Assembly: GCA_009602725.1 (NCBI GenBank)
Contig: WELB01000012.1
Span: forward strand, 804,619 to 868,618
Direction: 5' to 3'
Length of the DNA: 64,000 nucleotides
From: Spirogloea muscicola
Lineage: Eukaryota
Each line of letters starts with the position of its first letter. Positions within the stretch are counted from its first letter, which is position 1. The notes under the pieces were generated by a model that made no database searches, had not been told where the DNA came from, and saw only the letters and a list, made by a program, of their open reading frames with translations. This document shows, piece by piece, positions 12,220-61,420 of the stretch. The translations under genes and the position numbers were made by a program.

Positions 12220-13176
12220 TCAATGTCTCCAGTTATTCCAGACGAATGAGAAGCGCTCAAGGCGGCAGCCGGCGTCTCTGTGGTAGCAGGACGTGGCCAG
12301 GGACTGCAGCGCGGCCGTCGTGCGCGGGGAGGCGCTCATAATCAGCTCTGTGGCTAGCGCCTCGGCGACACCCAGCAAGGCGCCGGCGATCACATCGAGG
12401 AAGTAGTGGCGGCCGAGGAGGACGCGGGATGTGGAGGTGGAGACTGCCCAGATGGTGGCAAACACGAAGACGAGGGGCCCATCGAGCGGCGGAGGCAGCA
12501 TGGCCGCGAGCAGCGGCCACTGGAGGAAGCAGAGGGAGGCAGTGAGGATGGTCCGCGAGGCATGGCCCGACGGGAACGACCACTTGTCCACGGACACGAC
12601 GACGTTGTGGCCTGCGGGAGCAAGGAGATGAGAGGGAGTAGGGTGAGTGGCCGGAGGTCGCGGGCTCAAACTCCGTCTATTTCGTCCTTTGGAAAGCCGG
12701 TGTCAAAATCCAAATTTCAAATGGGCAGGGCTGGCAGCGTGGCGACGTGTGATGCTGGCAACGGGTTTGCACAGCCTTGGGCTCGGGCAGCAATTGGAGT
12801 AAAGGATCTAGGGCCTGCCTGTGTTGTAGCTCGGGCGAGGCCGTCGGACGATGACCTTGATGACGCCGATGACGGCGAGGTCGACGAGGTAGGCGGCGAA
12901 GGTGAGGAAGGCGAACCAGCGCAGGCGCGGGGGCAGGCGCGGCGACTGTGGCGCCAGCCAGATGGCCAGCGGCGCCGGGATCCAGAAGCGCCCGTCGCCA
13001 GAGACCTCGAGCGCGCGCAGCACCCAGCGTGGAATGCCCTGCCCAGAACCGTCAGGGAGCAGGCCCGTCAGGCTCAGGGGAGCTCCAAGCCGCGAGCCGC
13101 AGCGAAGTGCCACCCGACTAGCGCCAGTAGCCACAGGGGGACGCGGCGGGGACAGGCGGCGTCTACTGCGGGGCAT
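12220..13176 (-). CDS. PAP2-family lipid phosphate phosphatase (LPP-beta / PLPP6-like); 5' end uncertain and may lie in the N-gap
   Basis: All three PAP2 motifs are present: KVIVRRPRP, SFPSGH and SRVLLGRHYFLD, with hydrophobic TM segments. Intron 12612-12818 has a GC donor; stop at 12220. Confidence 0.9.
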
Positions 13177-13264: not shown

Positions 13265-13916
<652 letters not shown>

Positions 13917-20950: not shown

Positions 20951-21468
20951 NNNNNNNNNNNNNNNNNNNNNNNNNNNNNNNNNNNNNNNNNNNNNNNNNN
21001 NNNNNNNNNNNNNNNNNNNNNNNNNNNNNNNNNNNNNNNNNNNNNNNNNNNNNNNNNNNNNNNNNNNNNNNNNNNNNNNNNNNNNNNNNNNNNNNNNNNN
21101 NNNNNNNNNNNNNNNNNNNNNNNNNNNNNNNNNNNNNNNNNNNNNNNNNNNNNNNNNNNNNNNNNNNNNNNNNNNNNNNNNNNNNNNNNNNNNNNNNNNN
21201 NNNNNNNNNNNNNNNNNNNNNNNNNNNNNNNNNNNNNNNNNNNNNNNNNNNNNNNNNNNNNNNNNNNNNNNNNNNNNNNNNNNNNNNNNNNNNNNNNNNN
21301 NNNNNNNNNNNNNNNNNNNNNNNNNNNNNNNNNNNNNNNNNNNNNNNNGCCGCCGCCTCTTGCGGCGGCCCGCGCGGTGGACTCCGGTGCCGCCGCCTGT
21401 GAGTCGCCCTCACCACGGCGAGAGCATGGCAGCTGCCACCGCGTGGCCGCCGTGCCCCGTGGCCAGCC

Positions 21469-27654: not shown

Positions 27655-28834
27655 NNNNNNNNNNNNNNNNNNNNNNNNNNNNNNNNNNNNNNNNNNNNNN
27701 NNNNNNNNNNNNNNNNNNNNNNNNNNNNNNNNNNNNNNNNNNNNNNNNNNNNNNNNNNNNNNNNNNNNNNNNNNNNNNNNNNNNNNNNNNNNNNNNNNNN
27801 NNNNNNNNNNNNNNNNNNNNNNNNNNNNNNNNNNNNNNNNNNNNNNNNNNNNNNNNNNNNNNNNNNNNNNNNNNNNNNNNNNNNNNNNNNNNNNNNNNNN
27901 NNNNNNNNNNNNNNNNNNNNNNNNNNNNNNNNNNNNNNNNNNNNNNNNNNNNNNNNNNNNNNNNNNNNNNNNNNNNNNNNNNNNNNNNNNNNNNNNNNNN
28001 NNNNNNNNNNNNNNNNNNNNNNNNNNNNNNNNNNNNNNNNNNNNNNNNNNNNNNNNNNNNNNNNNNNNNNNNNNNNNNNNNNNNNNNNNNNNNNNNNNNN
28101 NNNNNNNNNNNNNNNNNNNNNNNNNNNNNNNNNNNNNNNNNNNNNNNNNNNNNNNNNNNNNNNNNNNNNNNNNNNNNNNNNNNNNNNNNNNNNNNNNNNN
28201 NNNNNNNNNNNNNNNNNNNNNNNNNNNNNNNNNNNNNNNNNNNNNNNNNNNNNNNNNNNNNNNNNNNNNNNNNNNNNNNNNNNNNNNNNNNNNNNNNNNN
28301 NNNNNNNNNNNNNNNNNNNNNNNNNNNNNNNNNNNNNNNNNNNNNNNNNNNNNNNNNNNNNNNNNNNNNNNNNNNNNNNNNNNNNNNNNNNNNNNNNNNN
28401 NNNNNNNNNNNNNNNNNNNNNNNNNNNNNNNNNNNNNNNNNNNNNNNNNNNNNNNNNNNNNNNNNNNNNNNNNNNNNNNGGCGGCGGCGCACGCGGCGGC
28501 GGCGCTGGCGGCGGCGGCGGCCAGGGCTGGCGCCGGGGGGAAGAAAGGAAGGCGGTGAGGAGGCGGCGGAAGGGGATGGAGCTGGCGTAAAACAATCAGC
28601 GCTGGCAGCAGATTGTATCGCGTCAGCAGATTCGTGCGCAAAAAGCGCCCGGGGGGACAGATCACATCGTACTTGCGTTCCGGGCTCCCCGCCCGCCCGA
28701 GGACCTGACGAGGACGGCGACTGAACGGCTCCCCGGCACCGTTCCGTTGGGGTCTTATCAATCTCCCGACCGTGGGTTTGACTCACCTCCCTTGCGCCTT
28801 CGACGAAAATGCTTGTCAACAGAAGAAGCAAGTC

Positions 28835-39770: not shown

Positions 39771-40171
39771 CTAGAGCTCGCCCCAGCTTTCTGGTGCAAA
39801 GCATTAGCCTGAGCACTCTGCAAACACGCCGAAACTCGTCGTCGCAAGAACGACAGATATGCAGCCGGCAAGCCCATCTCAGCCGCAAACACATCTGCAC
39901 GTCATGTGTAGCCTAAATTGGCAATTTATTTTGCAGGAGTGTGGAGAATGGAGGACCTAAAGCGAGGAGCCCGGGCCCCGGCAGCGGCAGCGGCAGCCCG
40001 CACACAACGCCGCCAGAGTGGCCTGCGCCGCCGTCCGCGGGGCGCGGCCCAGCAGCAGCGGCGCGCTCCCAGCGAGAGTTTGCCATTTCCGGCTAGCCGT
40101 TGGCGGCGCCCGTTTAACGTGGCAGCTAAAGGGCTCCTCCTCCCACTGGGCCCGAGGCCGAGCCATCCCGC

Positions 40172-42129
40172 ATGCCGCCGAGGGCCGCCATCGAAAGCCT
40201 GCCGGACGAGTGCCTGACGGCGGTGCTGGCGCGCGCCGCCGCCAGGCCAGGCGGGCCGCCGGGCTGGGCCGCCATCGTGAGCGTCTGCCGCCGGTGGCGC
40301 CGCCTGGCCAAAGCCGCCATCACGGAGATCTCGCTGCGGGACCGGGGGTGCCAAGGGTCCGGCCCGGGGGAGCCGCCGGTGGTCGGCACTGGCCTGGCCG
40401 CCGCCCTCCCCGCTCTGACGCGCCTCAGCCTCCACTTTGACTCCGTGCCCCACGAGGACCTCCGCCACCTGTCGGCTATATCGACGCTCACCGACCTGCG
40501 AGTGGAGCTGGCCGGGCAGGAGCACAACGATGAGATCGACCACGTGGAGCTGCAGCGCACCTTTCGGTCTCTCACTGCGCTCAGCACGTCGTGCGAGCGC
40601 TTACACTACACAAGACGTGCCCTGCCTTGCCCCTGGCTGACGTCGCCGGCTTCACGGCACTCGAGAGCCTCACAGTGACCAATTCGCTAGCTACTGGTAC
40701 TTGCCTCATGCTGCCAAGTGCTATGCTACCCAAGTTCCTGCTGCGTGACTGCTGATACCACTTACTAGTATGTTGGAAGCCAAGCTCTTTCTTGCATTAT
40801 GAGGGTAACTGAGTGCTGACTTCAATTACCTGTTCTGATATTGCAGATGGTGACATCCACACGATCGCTACTGCTTGCCGGCACCTCACAGAGCTTCTGC
40901 TGTTGCATTCCGAGCAGGATCGGTCGGGTGGTTTCACTGCTGCTGGCTTGGAGTCGATTGGCAGGAATTTGCGCCAGCTTCGCAGATTCCGCGTACACTT
41001 TTGCCGCAGCTTCACGGACAGTGGGATCAGGCAGGTGGCTTTGGGTTGCACGCTGCTGCAAGACATCAGCATGCACTCCTGCCCCAATGTGTCTGCACAC
41101 TCAGTCCATGCGGTTCTTGAAGCATGCCCTGAGCTCAGGAGACTGCGGTTTCACCAGAGGTGGAATGACCCAGGGCTACGATTTTCACATGCCGTACATC
41201 TGACTATATCACGATTGGAAATGGTGGAGATCGTCATGTCCGATGATGCAGGTGCCAGTACGAATACTGCCATGGCCATCCTGGCTTTATCCTGCACGCA
41301 ATTGCGTGAACTACACGTGCACGCTGTAACCGACCCGCGCCCGGATGTCAGCAGGCTCGACCTATTGAAGAATTGTGCAGTCATGCCAGCGCTTGTGACA
41401 TTGACAATGACGGGATTCCAGTCCATCGAAATGACATCCTTTGCAGCATTCTTAGTCGGTGCCCCGCTGTTGGAGAACTTGACCTTGGAGGATTGCAAGT
41501 TGCTCGGTGTTGTGCAAGCACTACCCATGATGGTTTCTCTTCGCTCCATTGAGTGTTGTTCATCATTGGTTGGGCCATTGTTCGACTACTGGGACTTTGG
41601 TAAATGGTGCCACAACCTGACTTCCTTGCTCACTTTAGCACAATCTGACGGGGAGAACTTGGCCTTATCGCTTGCCGGATGCAACAAACTTGTGACTTTG
41701 AAAATTGAGGCCTATCATCGGTTGCGGCAAAGGCGGCTCCCATGGACCTGTCCCCCGCTTGGAAGCCTGAGAACTCTTATCTGCGAAAATGTGCATTGGC
41801 AAGACTTGGCTGCGTTAGCAAGGGCGTCCCCACGGTTGGAAGAAGTGCACTTACAAAGCTGCACCACCATGAACAAGAAGGCCATCCTTGGTCTTCTCTC
41901 CTCGTGCCCCCGACTTGGTTATATCAGAATCCTGGGCTGCTCTAAGCTTTCTCCAGTAGTGATGGATCGCTTGGCATACGGACTGAATGTCCGACGAGGT
42001 CATGTGTATGAGAGAGTGCATCTAGAGTTAGTAGATGGAAAGTGGGGACTCAATGGGGGGAAAGGCTCCATGATGTATTCTACGTATCGAGTTCATCGTT
42101 CTCAATGTAACACTGAGAACCCAAGTTGA
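40172..42129 (+). CDS. F-box/LRR (FBXL/RNI-like) protein, 2 exons; possible frameshift near 40620
   Basis: N-terminal F-box IESLPDECLTAVL...IVSVCRRWRRL. Exon 2 (from about 40847) is full of cysteine-containing LRRs (IATACRHLTEL, FCRSFTDSGIRQVALGCTLLQDI, CPELRRL, SCPRLGYI). Confidence 0.82.
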
Positions 42130-42559
42130 GATGGAACTTAGGCTCGAGCAAAGTTGATGTCTCTCATACTTCTGAGGTACATGGAAGTAGCAATTTTAGA
42201 ATATGATCCTAAACATTTTGGGTGATCACCACATGCAAATGGCCTCTCACAGTAGCATTGAATGGAAGTCGTTTAGCTTAAGGAACTTACATTTTCTGTT
42301 GAGAGCCTTTTGTTATAGCAACTTAAATGCAGGTTAGCATGTTGATTGCACACAGCTGCCATTGTTGGCCACACCAGAAGGAAAGATTGGGAAGGAGGCA
42401 GCCCACCAAAGCAGAAGTTGCCGTTGGAGCGGGCTGAGTACATAAATTCATAAATGATGCCTGCACTTGCTGCAGCGAGTGAAAAGGTGCTTGCGGTCAA
42501 ATAAGAGAAGACTACTTGAAGTATGTGAACTTAGGCTGCTTCTGCTCGTGGTGGCCCTG

Positions 42560-43533
42560 TTACAGCGACCTGGCGCTCCCTCAGGGTCGACGACCCGTCT
42601 GGCAGCCCTGTGTGGGTGTAATAATCCATGCCTGGGCCTCGCACTATGTTCAACACGATCTTGCTTCCCATCGGGAAGGTGCTCTTCATCAACGGTGCCA
42701 GCTCGGGCTATGCAGGTGTGACGAGGGATCAGCGTTGGCTCCATTGAGATCTGTGCTGCATACTTCAAGAAGTCATCTGATGCAACCTGCGAGGCTGTAA
42801 GCTAGTGATATCCGCAGTCAGACGCACATCTTCTGCTGCATGGAATACGCTTGTGCAAATTGAAGTCGGCCGCAGGTATCACACCGCTTGCACGACAGCA
42901 TCAAATCCATACCTTCGCAATCCAACCGTGTCGCCCGGCTCGGCAGCGAGGTTTGGCGCTTTGTCACCGTCCACCATCGCCAGGCTGTTCCCGGCGTCTG
43001 CCACTCTCGCCCATGAATACAGGCCCATCCTGGCAGGAGGAAGCCCCTACACGTTCACCGCCCCCAGCCAAGTACGCGGGGGCCATGTAAACGTCTGTGG
43101 AGGCCTTCTCGCCACAGTACCTCGACTACCATATGAGTGCACCGCCCATCATCTCCCCGTCCTTGCCTACCTCCCTCCTCTACTCCCAGAACGTCCCCAT
43201 CACGTTCTCGGCGGCGAAGGCCGTCTCTGTTGTGCTGATCGACCCCGGCGTGAGCACTCATGGCCTCACCATGGGTCAGCGCATGGTCAAGCTGCAGTGA
43301 CCAAGTTCGTCGCCAACAGCAATGGCGCAATCTCAACAACAGTCACCCTCCCGCCCAACAGCAACATCGGCCCGCAGGAGTACTACTTGCTCTTTGTGAT
43401 CGTCACACCTGACGGTGTTGGCGCAGCCGTTGTGCCATCTATATGTAAGTGGGTGCAACTAGGTGGGATCCCAGCCTACCCGCCACCAGCCCCTTCGCCT
43501 TACCCCTCACCGCCACCATCAAGCTCTCGTTGA
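42560..43533 (+). pseudogene. 5'-truncated pseudogene of a glyoxal-oxidase-like (AA5 Kelch + DUF1929) C-terminal half
   Basis: ...SPVWV**SMPGPRTMFNTILLPIGKVLFINGASSG (in-frame TAA TAA), PSTIARLFPASATL, frameshift, VEAFSPQYL...DPGVSTHGLTMGQRMVKL, frameshift, PQEYYLLFVI...VPSICKWV. Paralogous to the 3' half of the gene at 44557-50030. Confidence 0.85.
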
Positions 43534-44556: not shown

Positions 44557-47500
44557 TCATGGGGGTGCTGGTCCAACACTGATCCATATACCAGTCGAGG
44601 GCACAGCTGGCCCATTCGCTACTGCCTGCACCACGACAAAAAGCAGGTAGAAGCCCGGGGGACAAGTGGACGGCGTTGGGGGGCTGGTGAAGGACACAGT
44701 GTAGTTCCCTGTTGAGGTCTTGGTTGTACTGCTGGAGTCGAGCACGAGTGCACGCTGTCCCATGTTCCGGCCGTGTGTTGCTACTCCAGGGTCCATGAGA
44801 AGCACAGCCGCGGAGCTGACCGAGCCAGCTGAGAAGGAGATTTGATTGGCGTCATTATACTGAAGGTATTCGGGTAGTGAGGCAGGGTCAACACTAGGCT
44901 GAGGAGAGAGCTGCGCGGACAGGTAGGGCGGTGAGAAGGCCTCCACGGAGAGCGGGACGGTGGAGGGGTACTGCAGTGGGGCCTTTGCCACGGTGCTGCC
45001 CCCTGCAATGATCACTGTTCCATCAAAGCTGAGGGTTGCTGATGCTTGGTCTGGCCTGGCGATGGTGGAAGGTGGCAGGACTCGGAATCTCGAGGAACTG
45101 CCAGGTGGCTGGCTTGGATCCAGAAGGAACGGGGTCAACAGAGGCTCGTCTGTGGTATTGCGCACTGCAGAACAGAGGAGCACTCAGACAAAACATGGCG
45201 GCAAAGGTACATCGATGATGGCAGCTCGGGGCAAGCCAAAGTTCGTGGCGAGCAGCGTGACCTGAGGAGCTCAGCTTAAGATGATCGAATACTGTGACGT
45301 TGGTTTGGGATGCTTGTGCAACCAGTATTCACCTGCACTGTGCAAGTGAGATTGGTGCATGCTCACAACAGCAGTACTCAGTCAACAGAGTTTCATGTTC
45401 ACCTGCTGAGCCAGATGATGCGCCATTGATGAAGAGTACCTTGCCATCGGGCAAAAGTACAGTGCTGAACATGGTTCGCGGCCCTGGCATGTCCTCATAC
45501 GTCCAGGTGGGTGAGGGATCACTGACATGGAGAGTACCGCAAGAAGAAGTGGCAGGGAGAGCGCCTCCGCAGACCATGATGACCGCAGCAAAGCCGGCTG
45601 CAGCACGCAGTGGAAGCATGACACTGCCTGAAGCGTACGGGCTAGTCCTCGACAAGGAATTGGGGTCTCCACTGACATTAATGTCGGGAAAACTTCGGGT
45701 GCAGTTCCCGCTTCCAGCAGTGATGTTCAGCTCACACGCCTGTGACGCAAGCACAGCAGTGTGTTGTCAATCATTCATGACCATATGTAACACACGCAGC
45801 GGGAAACAGGTTGGAAGGCAGGATTGCTCAGCAAAGGCAGGAAGGTGAGGAGATCTGCGACACGCTGGCTTCTCTCATAGGCTTCTGCACCTTGTTGTTG
45901 ACAAGCAGAAAGAGGTTGCCACTAGGAAGAAGGTAGATGATCGGGTAGAGGTCGTAGTATCCAGCAGTCAAAAGGAGCGGGATTGAATGCGTGTTAGACC
46001 TCTCAAGAGGTCTCTGCTTCAAAAGCAGCTCATATGAGTAGCTTGTTGCAGCAATCGAGTCTGTGTCGTTGTTCAGGCCCTCGCCACCAACAAAGATGAC
46101 ATTGCCGTCCTGCAGCCTCTGTGCGGATGAAAAGAACCTGGTGACCAGCCCTTATGGAGCAGCTCAGCAAACGAGCATCGCCATGCTCGTGAAGCGGTTG
46201 CAGCATCTATGCTGCTGAAAGTACATAACCAAACTTCCTCTTCATTTGTTCAAGACAAGCCCAAGCACGTCAAGGCAACGGCGAAGCAGGGAGCTGGTCA
46301 GGCTGACCTTCTTGTTCTGAGGGCCTGCTCAGGTGAGTCAAATTCGGCTGAGCCGTACGGCTGTGGATCGAAGCTCCTGAGGGCATACCAGCCCTTGGGG
46401 TCCGAACTGTTGCCGATGCCGCCAGCAACCAGCACTGCGCCTGTGGATGTGGTGTGACCGCAAGCGCCATACGTGTTTGTCACGGGCCCATGGAGGCCAC
46501 GCACCTGTGCAGTCATAACTTGTTCAAGGCGCAAACCAGGTATCAAGTCCACTGTCACAGTTTTGAACTCCAGCTGCAGACAAGCTCAGTATCTGCAGAT
46601 TGACAGACCTGAAACGTGGTTGTGCTGAACTCCACAGCATGAGCGAAGCGGGACGCATCATCACTGGCCCTGACTCCCGTCTCCACGATATCCGTGCGAT
46701 CCACAAAAAGGATGGTATTGTGCCGAGTCAGCACTGCCAGGGTGCCGGAGATACCAATGTCGGTGCTGAGCACAGCGAAGGCGCCAGCAAATGGAGGAGG
46801 TGGAGGGTGGACGGGCGGCCGTGGCGGCGGAGGACTGGGCGGCCTGGGAGGGAGAGCTCTTGGCGGCGGTGGGGAGGGAGGCGGCGGGGAGCTGGGAGGT
46901 GGGGGCCGCGGCGGCCTCGGCGGCGGGAAGTGGGGGCTCAGTGGCGGATTTGGGCTTCTGGGCGGCGGTGCTGGCTGCGCACTACAGCCTGGGATGGCAC
47001 ATCTGTCGTGGCCGGTGGCCTTGTACACACCACTCGGGGTCAGCATGTACGGATCGCCAATGTAGTCCTCACCCCAGGTGTGGATCTCCGGCACCGAGAG
47101 CGGACTGCCGGGTGTGTGGTTGAACGGGATGGGGAGAGTGGATTGGAGAGCCGCGTAGAAGCTGACAAACTGCTTGGCCATGGTGGTCCACCGCGGCTGC
47201 CCGGGCCCGCTCGTGTCGGTCGCGATCCATGCCGCGCCATACTGGTCGACGTAGAAGTACTTGCCACCGTAGCAAGGGACTCGCGGCGAGCGGTAGATGG
47301 GGCCGCCGATGACTGCAACGGAGGTCACTTTGACATGCGCGTCCTGGTGCGTGTAGGTCAACCTCGGCCACTGCGGCCACAAAGGAAAGAGCAAGCTTGT
47401 GTCAGTGATGCTCTTTCTGCAGAAGTTGTGAAAGCGCTTTAGGTCTCTCCAGCTTTGGCAAGACAACTGCTTGATCAATGAGGGAGACGCAAGTCATTGG

Positions 47501-50030
47501 GCAGCAATGGCTGGACCTCAAGGCCTCCCACCTTAAGCGTTCCGAAGATTTTGTGGGGGTCGGTGAAGCCGCCTGGCGGGGCATGCTTGTCATACTTTGC
47601 AATCTTTGTGAAATTCAACGTTCCTGTGCCAACAGAGTGGCAGCTGCATATTCAGACGTGCACCTTGCCATACGTCCGGTGCCATAAGAGCTGGCACCAG
47701 CAGGTAGCCCATCAGTGCGCAGCAGCAAGTGCTGGTGATGCCTTGGGGAGGTCCTGCCAGGGGCCGGAACTTCACACGCACCTTCAAACATGCGCCAACC
47801 GTAGTTTCCTCCAGCCACAATGACATCAATCTCCTCCATGGTGTCCTGCAGTGCAGGAAGTCTAAGCTGGTGAGGGCTCCCGATGCTTGCAGTAGAGGCA
47901 ACGATCCATATGAGAGAAAGCCAAGCATCTACAACGGCGACAGCAAAGGAGAGCGGCATCTGGCTAATGCAGAATAGTCAGAGCGTGGCTGGCTGTCAGA
48001 CCTGGCCAACATCAGCACAGAGGAAGTCATCATTGTCGCGGTCAAAAGTGCAGCTCCAGGGGTTGCGCAAGCCAAGCGCATAGATTTCGGGGCGAATCCC
48101 TGAGACGCCAACGAATGGGTTATGTGACGGTATCCCGTATGGACGGCTTGCTGTGTAGTTATCCACGTCAAGCCGCAGTATTTTCCCGAGGAAGGTGGTG
48201 CCCCGCTGTGCGAAGTTGAAGATGTCGCCAGCTCCACCCCCATCACCGGACATGTAGTACATGTACGGCTCCAGCACAGTGCGCCGGAAGAGCAGGTGGC
48301 CGCCGTTGTGGTTGCTGTATGGCCTGCATGCAAAGCCCGTGGGACTCGCCAGCCAAAGTCAGCATCCACTGGGTGGCAGCTGCTGCAAACATGATGCCTC
48401 ACCTGCCAAGGAGCTCCCCTGGCGTTCTCTACCTCGCGAATGTGAGGAGCCTCCGGACTTCAGCTTTGATGGCGACTGTCGCTGTACGTGGGCTGGAGCC
48501 CGCACTGTACTCGGCAACAATCGTGTTGGCCTCACACAAGGGCTGCTGCGAGGCTCCAACGTTGGGCTGCGGGATGTGACACTGATTGACCGCATTGCAC
48601 TCGCACGGCCCTTGGCAGTCCGGGTACTTGGTGCCATTGCAGATGTACGACACAAAGAAGCGGCCATTGACAAGGTAGTCCGGGTGCAGTGCAAACCCCA
48701 GCAGGCCACGCTCGCCGTTGGCTAAAGTCCTCGAGTGAATATCAAGAAACTGCACATGTGATGAGCGTGATCAGGGCGGACCTTCGCCAAGGCGTAGCGG
48801 CCTCGTCACAGGAGGCGGTAGGCGCTGGCGCTCGAGCAGCACCAGCCAGCAGCGGGCTTGGCATAAGGAGGTTTGACTTACAACGGTCCTGTTGGCAAAC
48901 CTCTTGCCGCTGCCTTCTGGCGGGACCTGCGCAAGAAAAACATAGCCGCTGCGCGTGTGCAGGAAGACGCGGTTGGAGCCGTCGGGGTGCGGCAGCATGC
49001 CCAGGTAGTACCCATCATCGACCCGGTCGAGACAGATGTTGGGCAGCGGCGGCGCCGAGCTGGTTGGCGGAGGCGGCACGTACGGCGGCGGCGGCGGCGC
49101 TGGGGGGAGCGGGCCATTGGGATCGTAAGGCAAGCCGGAGAAGCAGCGGTCCTGGTATGGCGACGCGCAGAAGTCGAGCCGAAATGCAGCCAGCGTCGGG
49201 TACTTGTCGCGCAGGCGGAACGCTGCCGGGCTTGGCTGCACGTTGAGCTCGTCGCGCTGTGCCTGCAGGTACTGGAGGTAGAGCGGCGAGTACGTGACGT
49301 TGAGGCCAGCGCAAGCTGCGTACGCGCCGTCGCAGTAGCTCCCCAGGCAGAGCAGCGGCAGAGCGCGCGCCGCGCCGACCTCCGAGTCGAACAGGTGCGA
49401 CGCCCACGGGTCGCATTGCTACAATGGACGCACGGCAGGTCGTTAAAGCCCGTCAGCGAGCTTCGCGACGGGGCATACTGTCAGTCGATCAGCGACCATG
49501 GTGGCCGCCACTTGCAGCGACCAGGTAGACGAGGGAGCTCACCGCGCAGGTGGCGAGCTGCAGGAAGGTCCGGCAGCCCGCAACCTCGTCGGCGGAGCCA
49601 CCCGAGAAGGCCATCTGGGCGGCCTGCCGCTGCAGCCGGACGTCCGCGTCGTAGTCGCAGCACCCCAGGTGGGCGTACGCGCCGCCGTGGAGCTGCATGC
49701 AGAAGGGGCCCGCGGGGGACTGCGGCACAGGCCCGGCTGCGAGCGCCACCACCAAGAGCTCCGATCAGGGCGCCAATGCAAGGCACCACGGCGCCCGCAG
49801 CACAGCTGTCGCGGTGACGGAGACGTGATCTATGTCAAGCCAAGGAGCTACCGACGAGAGCTGACGACACAGTGGAGCTGGCCACGCCTGCGAGAGCAGC
49901 GGCGGCGGTGCTCACAGAAGTCCTCGCAGATGGGGTGCGCCAGCGCGCTCCCGACGAGCAGCAGCAGCGCGGCGGCCACGGCGCGCGCCGGCCGTCCGCT
50001 GCTGCGGCGGGCGTGCCGCCGAGACGCCAT
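44557..50030 (-). CDS. Secreted HIPL1-like protein (cysteine-rich domain + PQQ glucose/sorbosone-dehydrogenase propeller) fused via a Pro-rich linker to a glyoxal/galactose-oxidase-like domain, 12 exons
   Basis: Signal peptide ...ALLLLVGSALA-HPIC. HIPL1 motifs GCCD, CAQCDPWASHLF, ICLDRVDDGYYLGMLPHPDGSNRVF, GFALHPDYLVNGRFFVSY, NHNGG, GDGG, LGKILRLDVD, EIYALGLRNPW, CADVGQDTMEEID, GGNYGWR, WGED. After an SPPPP linker come GLOX motifs DIGIS, DRTD, AHAVEF, DLYP...LLPSGNLF, MPGPR...LLPDGKVLFING, VEAFSPPYL, TH..NMGQR, PPGFYLLFVV. All introns are GT-AG and phase-compatible. Confidence 0.9.
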
Positions 50031-58961: not shown

Positions 58962-61420
58962 ATGGCGGCCCTGCCCGCCGCCGCCGCTGCCGCCGCCGCC
59001 GCCGGCAGCGGCGGCTGCAGTGGCGGCNNNNNNNNNNNNNNNNNNNNNNNNNNNNNNNNNNNNNNNNNNNNNNNNNNNNNNNNNNNNNNNNNNNNNNNNN
59101 NNNNNNNNNNNNNNNNNNNNNNNNNNNNNNNNNNNNNNNNNNNNNNNNNNNNNNNNNNNNNNNNNNNNNNNNNNNNNNNNNNNNNNNNNNNNNNNNNNNN
59201 NNNNNNNGGCCACGGGCGCAGACGCCGCCGCTGCAGGTCCGAGCCCGCCGCCGCCGCCGTCGCCGCCGCCGCCGCCGGCGCAGATGCGCTTAGGAGCGGC
59301 TCTCATCCTGGCTTGCAGCACCGACGGGCTGCCGCTCGGCAGGGCGACGACGAGCCCATCGCGGCCGCCGTCTCGGCAATGTAGGCCACCATAGCCACTT
59401 CCCCATGACCGCTAGAGCTGAGGCTAGCGCCCGGCGCTTGTGCCGGCGGCAGCAGCGGCGCTGGCAGCTGGCGGCGACGGCGGCACGCGCGAAGTGGAGT
59501 TCCGGTGGGCCGGCGGCGGCGACGACGTGCGGCTCACGGGCGACTTCTGCGGCTGGGGCGCGCAGCTGCCCATGGCGCGCGCCACCGACGGCGCCGCCTT
59601 CACGCTCAAGCAGGTCCGCCCAAATCAGAAGCGTCACCAAATAGACCTCTGAGGTCCGCCCGAAAAGCAAAGCCAAATGGGACTCGAACCTGCATCTTCC
59701 AATGGATCCGCTGCGCGCCTGAAACTACGTTGCAGAGCCTGGCGCCGGGGACGTACAGCTACAAGTTCATCGTGGACGGCCGATGGCGGCACGCCGCCGA
59801 CCAGCCCAGCACTGGCGACGGCGTGGACGGCTTCAACAACACCATCACTGTCGAAGGTGAGCGGGTGCTCCCTCTCAGCCCAGAATCGGCTGAGTAGCAC
59901 TTATGGGCTGGCCCGCTTAACGTCCTGTGGTGATGATGCCCAAGTAGCAAAATCAAAGTCAGCTGATTTGGCCCTTGCAGCTGCATCAGCGCTTCACTTG
60001 CGAGCACAATGGGTCAGATTCGTCTGTGAATATTTAATGTATGTGAGCACTAATGTGCAGCCTGTGCTGCATTAGTGCGTCAGCTCACACCTTGCTGCCA
60101 ATGCCGCAGCTCCACCTCTTGCCAGTGTCGAGGAGAAGGTCCCAGTGAAACCAGCACAGGGTGCCTCAGAAGTGGAAGCCAAGGAGGCGCTGCCCTCCGG
60201 TGGTAGCGCTCTGCCACAAGCGCCACCTGAGCAGAAGGAGGCAGACAGCCTTCCGAAACAGCCACCGTCGCCCTTGCCTACTGACAAAGGCAGCGAGGAC
60301 AATGGCAAGCCGGCTGTGAAGGTAGTGACTGGCGAGGCCATTGCCGCTGCCAAGGCTGACGAGAAGAAGCCCGCTGGGAAGAGGGCAGGGAAGAAGGCCA
60401 CTGTTGTGCGGCCCATTGGGGAGGTCATGAATGGCGAGGTCATTCCTCAGCTCGCGGCGGCACTAGAGAAGGAGCCGGACGTGAGCAGTGTCGACCTCAC
60501 ATTTGCTGACAACCAGGTGAGGAGAGACACCTAGGTCTTCTGAACCTTCTAGCAAGAGCAGAGGCTGCCACGTCTTTTGGCTGGTCACTACATAGGCACA
60601 GGAGCAGCTGGGGGGATTCCCCTCTACCTGACAGAGTGCTTGCCCAGCCCAAGCTAGACAGCAGGCGCAGGAGTCTATATGCTCATAATACGCGTGCTGA
60701 GGTCTTCCAGCAACTGCAGATGACAAGGCAGATCATTGTGTTTCCACCAAGGGGCTGATCCGCTGGCTTGCATTGGCCTCCAACTGCTGGAAATCCTGCT
60801 GCTTTAGTTCTAAGATTGAGGCAGGGCAAACTTTGTGAGAGTGGACGGGGTTGACAATCATATCTGCGAGGCAGTATCCTCATCTATGCAAGCGGGGCTC
60901 TTTCCAGTGATGTAAGCCGCAAACGCTAAGCATTCAAAGCTCCTCGTGTTGCCTTGTGTCAACCTGCAGTTGCGCGGCAGCTTTGTCAAGGGGCCCGTCC
61001 CCTACTGCTTCTGGGCCTACTTTCCAAGCGGCACTCTTGAAGGTACCTCACTCGCATTGTCTTGTCAGGCCCGCTCATAAGCTGGCCATATCTTACGTAT
61101 GGAGGGTTCTGTGCTGACCACTACTGACACGATCAGCATTGGCTAGCTACCTTATCTTGTGGCTGCTCTTGTGTGGTCAGCATGAGGACAACACCTGGCA
61201 TCTTTGCTGCTCGTCAAGCTTGTAGCTCGTTCATAACCCCTTGCTAATTGACACTCTCGGTCCAATCACAGGCCCACGCGGCTTCTCGTTGACGTCCCAC
61301 GGCGGGACACCAAGTACTGTGGAGCCTTTCTTGATTGACGAGCGCAAGATCACGGCCGAGCTGCTCGTGTTCTGGGTACGCAAACGCCTCTTTGCACAGA
61401 AGATATTATCTCTAAATTAG
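58962..61420 (+). CDS. Putative plastid protein: transit-peptide-like N-terminus + CBM48 (AMPK-beta-type glucan-binding module) + Pro/Lys/Ala linker + NdhV (DUF2996) domain
   Basis: CBM48: REVEFRWAGGGDDVRLTGDFCGWG...|SLAPGTYSYKFIVDGRWRH...GFNNTITV. NdhV: EVMNGEVIPQLAAALEKEPDVSSVDLTFADNQ|LRGSFVKGPVPYCFWAYFPSGTLE|GPRGFSLTSHGGTPSTVEPFLIDERKITAELLVFWVRKRLFAQ. Exons 59453-59613, 59736-59856, 60110-60516, 60970-61042 and 61272-61420 join in phase. The 5' exon is interrupted by a gap. Confidence 0.88.

Follow-up and report, generated by a model that had tools for sequence, protein, structure and literature searches.

The window analysed here is a stretch of 64,000 nucleotides from Spirogloea muscicola, and it raises the question of what a GLOX/AA5 domain does when its gene stays intact while nearly all of its active site is replaced. 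The active site of AA5 enzymes is described as invariant, so family counts treat each member as a source of H2O2. A sequence-only reading of this locus proposed a pseudoenzyme, repurposed as a carbohydrate- or protein-binding propeller or endowed with different chemistry. Our sequence comparisons point to a real, constrained, lineage-specific AA5 pseudoenzyme within an unannotated HIPL1 fusion.

Gene model and architecture

The hand-built gene model comprises 12 exons encoding 1263 aa (Table 1). The introns are all GT-AG, with lengths of 104-238 nt, and the joined exons form a single open frame without a stop. The protein exhibits a Cys-rich domain and a GSDH propeller (aa 32-672), a Pro-rich linker of ~60 aa (~681-740, encoded at ~46971-46792) with three SPPPP motifs, and a GLOX/AA5 domain (~741-1263). 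The latter starts within exon 8, near 46790, which is upstream of the coordinates given in the sequence-only reading, whose stretch is the last third of the gene. Pfam searches on single exons recovered GSDH, Glyoxal_oxid_N and GO-like_E_set, and PF03024 gave no match on single exons. The PF07995 match corresponds to exon 5, and the GLOX part scores 92 bits with PF07250 and 70 bits with PF09118, values that pass the Pfam cut-offs or nearly so.

Table 1. Features of the window (positions are those of the 64,000-nucleotide stretch)
Feature	Position	Strand	Content
Whole gene	44557..50030	-	Signal peptide, HIPL1 domains, Pro-rich linker, catalytically dead GLOX/AA5 domain
Exon 1	49916..50030	-	Start codon, predicted signal peptide, hydrophobic stretch aa 17-35; no cover by run X1
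Exon 2	49543..49736	-	Cys-rich N-terminal HIPL1 domain; X1 contig piece 49544-49734
Exon 3	48882..49418	-	End of Cys-rich domain, short Pro run, start of GSDH-type propeller
Exons 4-7	47532..48749 (48749-48433, 48323-48002, 47845-47782, 47623-47532)	-	GSDH/HHIP-type propeller; PF07995; X1 joints for introns 4-7 at 85% likeness
Exon 8	46609..47370	-	End of GSDH propeller, Pro-rich linker, GLOX blade 1; X1 contig 46794-47182, 0 differences
Exon 9	46308..46504	-	Gly814 at cofactor-Cys position; Cys816
Exon 10	45891..46137	-	Phe868 at second-sphere Trp position, Phe869 at cofactor Tyr position; PF07250
Exon 11	45403..45739	-	Kelch blades; conserved Cys1006/Cys1016 pair
Exon 12	44557..45164	-	Asp1100/Gln1101 at axial Tyr/His; Ig-like E-set with His1192; stop codon
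NTYGACG	46477-46457	-	Gly814 46468-46466, Cys816 46462-46460
RRFFSS	spans intron 9; Phe868/Phe869 46136-46131	-	Cofactor Tyr replaced by Phe
ARPDQAS	45060-45040	-	Asp1100, Gln1101
ATHG	44781-44770	-	His1192 kept
Truncated, decayed paralog of the dead GLOX clade	42550..43533	+	Stops 42619-42624; frameshifts near 43080 and 43300; faces the gene
F-box/LRR-type gene	40130-42129	+	PF24758 on a 438-aa frame, PF23598 weakly upstream
Exon(s) of a PAP2-family phosphatase	12223-12702	-	
Exon(s) of a protein with an AMPK1_CBM glycogen-binding domain	59409-59894	+	
N runs (assembly gaps)	13265-13790, 20951-21348, 27655-28479, 59028-59207		

With regard to the N-terminal part, the land-plant HIPL1 profile matches the gene (HMM E 1e-125), and HHIP is the best PDB match of a related HIPL1 copy, P0190. 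The signal peptide, Cys-rich domain and GSDH propeller are common to the window gene and to land-plant HIPL1 (OsHIPL1 type, with animal HHIP relatives), and the HIPL1 part is 35% identical to P0191 over 722 columns. Land-plant HIPL1 ends in a short spacer and a hydrophobic tail, whereas the window gene continues into the Pro-rich linker and a dead GLOX domain of 520 aa. In a hydropathy scan and alignment, the gene product exhibits one N-terminal hydrophobic segment and 13 N-glycosylation sequons but lacks the C-terminal hydrophobic GPI-type tail that is present in the three land-plant HIPL1 aligned. A signal peptide together with repeated Ser-Pro3-5, here the three SPPPP, is the mark of chimeric extensin-like wall proteins, to which the predicted product may belong. 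A similar Pro-rich stretch is present at the N-terminus of P0002. At 48313-48299 (minus strand), the HIPL1 propeller also carries an HNGG motif and an LRNPW motif, both of which align with soluble PQQ glucose dehydrogenases.

A search with the last exon retrieved proteins of Spirogloea muscicola. The 5474-base span of the public model P0005 (SM000012S25396) is identical to the gene and its last 556 residues are those of the hand-built model; P0005 is therefore the window gene. In the public model, mid-linker sequence directly follows exon 1, and exons 2-7 are missing together with the larger part of exon 8; ~650 residues are lost in this way, which the hand-built model restores. Transcript evidence comes from one sequencing run, X1, which is probably of RNA, although not on record as such, and whose contigs were compared at 85% and 97% likeness; two other runs, X2 and X3, contained next to none of the searched words. 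At 85%, among the joints shown, which exclude three further joints, those of introns 4, 5, 6, 7, 9, 10 and 11 are exact, those of introns 2 and 3 are near, and intron 8 does not appear. At 97%, introns 9, 10 and 11 are spliced and the intron bins are uncovered, and no single contig runs from HIPL1 or the linker into exon 9 or the GLOX blades, with 46547-46793 uncovered. The gaps of X1 (exon 1 and 46547-46793) carry no evidential weight.

The splicing of the public model raises the question of whether the fusion is a real product, or whether HIPL1 and the dead GLOX domain are found on separate or alternative transcripts in which exon 1 leads to the linker. This would agree with the annotation of homologous copies as separate parts, and no X1 contig spans the whole gene. 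It is nevertheless improbable in our view, as exon 8 can be read without a stop, and in one frame only, from the final part of the GSDH propeller through the linker into the first GLOX blade, and no in-frame Met occurs in aa 656-990. In addition, the HIPL1 introns are spliced in X1, and the 389-nt contig 46794-47182 crosses the acceptor of the public model at 46890 unbroken. The combination of HIPL1 and GLOX was absent from the other 196 fetched proteins, a set not assembled as a fusion search. Since P0190 (s210) is an HIPL1 copy modelled without GLOX and P0001 (s123) a GLOX copy modelled without HIPL1, the fusion may be neither required nor common to these copies. Whether the fusion is real or not, the GLOX domain would be a pseudoenzyme.

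Active site and predicted fold

The AA5 site comprises Cys228, Tyr272, Tyr495, His496 and His581, and the Y495F substitution alone is inactive, according to an excerpt of PMC11611005. In the AA5_1 enzyme FgrAldOx of Fusarium graminearum (9N3U), the part of PMC13094651 that describes the site gives C450, Y510, Y738, H739 and H826 as the first shell, with W509 in the second sphere, and states that first-shell residues are conserved throughout AA5_1 and AA5_2. The four motifs singled out by the sequence-only reading are present on the minus strand where it had placed them, by coordinates as well as in the gene model (Table 1), and their register was checked against the intact paralog P0028, land-plant GLOX and 9N3U. 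These alignments agree with its count of four replaced residues out of five: C450, Y510, Y738 and H739 of 9N3U correspond to Gly814, Phe869, Asp1100 and Gln1101, and H826 is kept as His1192. A further replacement, absent from the earlier list, is Phe868 at the position of W509, the W of the R-W-Y motif.

Our residue census covered 184 aligned rows, that is, 183 fetched proteins and the hand-built model. Among rows with a residue at the position, the canonical one is found in 123/135 for Cys, 130/149 for Tyr, 167/182 for the axial Tyr, 164/182 for its His and 165/167 for the last His. Gly occupies the Cys column in eight of the 184 rows, all from one Spirogloea clade and two of them being the window gene itself. 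As judged from this alignment, the residue changes are neither chance nor common variation. X1 contigs match both the Cys motif (46313-46499) and the Tyr-His motif (45000-45124) without a single difference, and one contig joins across intron 9 exactly as RRFFSS requires; the motifs are therefore not errors of assembly or of splice prediction. None of the alternative splice acceptors of introns 8-11 brings back a catalytic residue, and X1 backs the chosen ones for introns 9-11. Cys816 was likewise rejected as a shifted cofactor Cys: it is located at the start of an inner strand, in a column of small residues in active enzymes, and is missing in P0026, P0176 and P0177.

The scaffold, which the sequence-only reading took to be intact together with its splice sites, is well preserved in the prediction. 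The AlphaFold model of P0005 has a mean pLDDT of 85.6, with 418 of 616 residues at or above 90, and exhibits a seven-blade Kelch propeller and an Ig-like domain. Assessed by Z, rmsd and sequence register alone, it superposes on 9N3U with Z 46.3 and rmsd 2.0 across 478 residues, and on galactose oxidase (AA5_2, 1GOF) and Streptomyces GlxA (4UNM) with Z ~39, which suggests the same fold; unrelated propellers give Z <=22. The four introns of the GLOX region are GT-AG, and three of them (9-11) are spliced in X1.

FgrAldOx and plant GLOX-like proteins (PF07250 with PF09118) thus share with the window protein the seven-blade Kelch and Ig-like E-set, the equivalent of His826, a modular N-terminal partner and a secretion signal. 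In contrast, C450, W509, Y510, Y738 and H739 are replaced by Gly, Phe, Phe, Asp and Gln, and the partner is HIPL1 instead of a WSC or CBM module. Compared with 1GOF and 4UNM, to which identity is 18-21%, the domain lacks the Cys-Tyr cofactor, the axial Tyr, one His and the probable equivalent of Phe464. In terms of AA5 features, the propeller, the Ig-like fold and the equivalent of His581 are present, and the cofactor Cys and Tyr, the axial Tyr and His and the second-sphere Trp are absent. As four of the five catalytic residues are lost, oxidase activity is almost certainly lost too. The gene product is an AA5 member by descent and fold, not as an enzyme.

Could the site instead have been rebuilt for another metal or reaction? 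Asp1100, His1192, Cys816 and Tyr813 are common to the window gene, P0001 and P0002, which form a three-gene branch, and His1192 is kept in seven of the eight clade genes scored at that column. However, other branches exhibit Phe-Gln, or lack Cys816 (the P0026 group) or the His (P0006), and Cys816 lies two residues beyond the cofactor position. The alignment of the clade rows yielded no substitute metal-ligand set common to the dead clade, hence a rebuilt metal site is very unlikely, and with it the different chemistry that had been suggested from the sequence.

Origin of the loss and selective constraint

Ten Spirogloea models lack the site, although the number of distinct genes may be lower, some models being near-identical and on tiny scaffolds. 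At the five catalytic positions, the window gene, P0001 and P0002 exhibit G-F-D-Q-H, and P0026, P0176 and P0177 exhibit G-A-F-Q-H. P0027 has ?-R-F-Q-H, P0006 has G-R-F-Q-G, and the partial P0062 and P0034 show F-Q. In a 57-row tree, all ten dead models group together (SH-aLRT 99). In a 39-row tree with the motif columns removed, which leaves out 18 of the 57 rows including three clade rows, the seven dead rows group at 99/97 and are sister to the intact P0028 at 100/99. P0028/P0178 (SM000793S22540, SM000920S24661) are the two intact models found in Spirogloea. They keep all five catalytic residues, unlike the dead clade, to which they are 33-35% identical, and both groups carry a lineage-specific Cys pair at ~aa 951-962. 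The Mesotaenium and Closterium matches that we checked have an intact site and are placed elsewhere in the tree.

The branches of the dead clade that share the losses are ~1.5 changes per site apart, which means that these losses predate the recent copies. On this phylogenetic evidence, the site was lost once in this Spirogloea lineage, long before the recent copies arose. From the common node, the root-to-tip distance is ~1.1 for the window gene versus 0.94 for the intact sister. In these alignments, Spirogloea is not alone in having lost AA5 residues: P0115 of Myrmecia bisecta (S-K-Y-Q-H) and P0149 of Rozella allomycis (Y-Y-Y-G-H) both fall outside the Spirogloea clade in the tree and are separate losses.

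We judged constraint by protein-level proxies, not by codon-level dN/dS. Among 37 canonical rows, 54 columns reach a conservation of 90% or more; the window gene retains 42 of them and has lost 12. The losses are concentrated around the site: eight of the 12 lost columns lie at most three residues from a catalytic position, versus five of the 42 kept (Fisher p 0.0004), and four of the five catalytic columns are lost versus eight of the 49 others (Fisher p 0.007). Four deep members of the clade are invariant at 33/46 highly conserved columns versus 10/134 variable ones (rho -0.50). Differences to P0001 (37/511) and to P0002 (131/516) are more conservative than all 1000 neutral simulations run for each. 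For the P0002 pair, 16 differences fall at conserved columns versus 34 expected, and the probability of finding no stop is 0.01. For P0001, the closest pair, significance is not reached for the lack of stops (P 0.28) and is borderline for the conserved columns (P 0.058). The intact sister itself deviates from the family at 9/62 conserved columns, hence part of the divergence is lineage-wide.

A redundant copy that decays neutrally could also present a ruined active site. The Spirogloea genome is triplicated, as described in 10.1101/2024.07.13.602682, and a truly decayed copy lies 1 kb from the gene. Yet the losses predate the recent copies, the frames are open, the changes avoid the scaffold, and four of the five X1 differences listed in the GLOX domain are silent, so that this explanation is extremely improbable. 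These protein-level tests (simulations, column conservation and targeted loss) reject neutral evolution, which had been named at the outset as the outcome that would overturn a repurposed domain, and indicate that the dead GLOX domain is under purifying selection. The domain thus unites a conserved fold and replaced catalytic residues with an intact gene that is spliced in one probable RNA run and constrained at the protein level, as is characteristic of a pseudoenzyme.

The neighbouring paralog provides, from its sequence, an internal example of real decay. Contigs of X1 from related copies exhibit indels at its frameshifts. The s123 models P0001 and P0034 also face each other, and their gap of 1030 bases is nearly equal to that of the window pair, 1024. 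The last 20 residues of P0190 (SM000210S06734) match the antisense strand of the pseudogene (43238-43297), which suggests synteny of the P0190 locus, an incorrectly modelled last exon and perhaps the loss of a GLOX part. A repeat search of the region found only the Pro-codon repeats and the pseudogene paralog as an inverted repeat. Elsewhere in the window, the assembly gaps (Table 1) account for bins of unusual composition and for several long ORFs that are false.

Possible role of the GLOX domain

Pseudoenzymes are common in general, and the regulation of active relatives by pseudoenzymes is a common pattern. Copper radical oxidases are normally activated by a peroxidase, and AA5 enzymes are generally monomers. 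The dead domain could accordingly act as a regulator or decoy of redox enzymes, binding the intact paralog, the activating peroxidase or the HIPL1 propeller and tuning H2O2 in the wall. An intact sister enzyme, P0028/P0178, is available in the same genome, and fungal oxidase-peroxidase pairs are described in an excerpt of PMC11611005. We nevertheless find such a role unlikely, given the low identity between the clade and this sister and the monomeric state of the family.

The sequence-only reading proposed binding to a sugar or a protein. Phe464 is conserved in all characterised enzymes and stacks on galactose, as stated in an excerpt of PMC11267884. The column that is its probable equivalent, by alignment, contains W, F or Y in 32 of 37 canonical rows versus an aromatic residue in one of the 10 clade rows. 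As this probable stacking aromatic is lost in nine of these 10 rows, binding would lack a known pocket; the old galactose-type sugar pocket is probably not kept and the ligand would be located elsewhere. The initial proposal of a pseudoenzyme stands, with four of five residues replaced, the fold kept and decay rejected. The case for carbohydrate binding in the former pocket is weaker, and different chemistry is unlikely. The in-frame fusion to HIPL1 and the existence of a ten-member clade, neither of which was available to the sequence-only reading, shape the present interpretation.

We consider it rather likely that this AA5-fold domain, almost certainly a non-oxidase with four of its five catalytic residues lost, is a non-catalytic binding module that would hold HIPL1 in the wall or mucilage. 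Arabidopsis HIPLs are reported to be GPI-anchored, and the function of plant HIPL1 is called unknown, in an excerpt of PMC9241377. We propose that an active Spirogloea GLOX was duplicated and that one copy would have lost Cys, Trp-Tyr and Tyr-His early, with Tyr-His becoming Phe-Gln and later Asp-Gln in the branch of the window gene. The dead copies would have been retained for the surface of the propeller and Ig-like domain. In the fusion, the dead domain and the extensin-like spacer would occupy the place of the short spacer and hydrophobic GPI-type tail of land plants, and the domain would take over from the membrane anchor by attaching to a polymer or protein of the wall, thereby tethering HIPL1. 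A wall-tethering or binding module is our best guess for the new role, as far as the sequences indicate.

No report of non-catalytic AA5 proteins in algae or of an HIPL1-GLOX fusion was found in the literature search, which covered titles and the starts of abstracts; the Spirogloea genome paper lies outside this scope and could bear on novelty. An Atlas search returned ordinary GLOX clusters only. The dead clade is seen in one species, but its ten models versus two intact ones would distort AA5 counts in this key land-plant relative. Together with the intact sister, this conserved clade allows a direct test of the role of the propeller apart from catalysis, and the fusion offers a handle on plant HIPL1.

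More tentatively, AA5 may have been turned into a reusable non-catalytic module for surface recognition, present in about ten genes and attached to HIPL1 and, provided that P0177 is a correct model, also to an LRR receptor kinase; this broader scenario is possible but doubtful. If true, the algal sister group of land plants would possess a natural AA5 pseudoenzyme family whose members serve as sensors or anchors in the wall. P0177 (SM000042S15286, 1345 aa) combines a dead GLOX domain, LRRs, a transmembrane-like stretch and a kinase in one model. From its sequence, P0177 would either merge separate genes across 11 kb or represent a receptor kinase whose ectodomain is a pseudo-oxidase.
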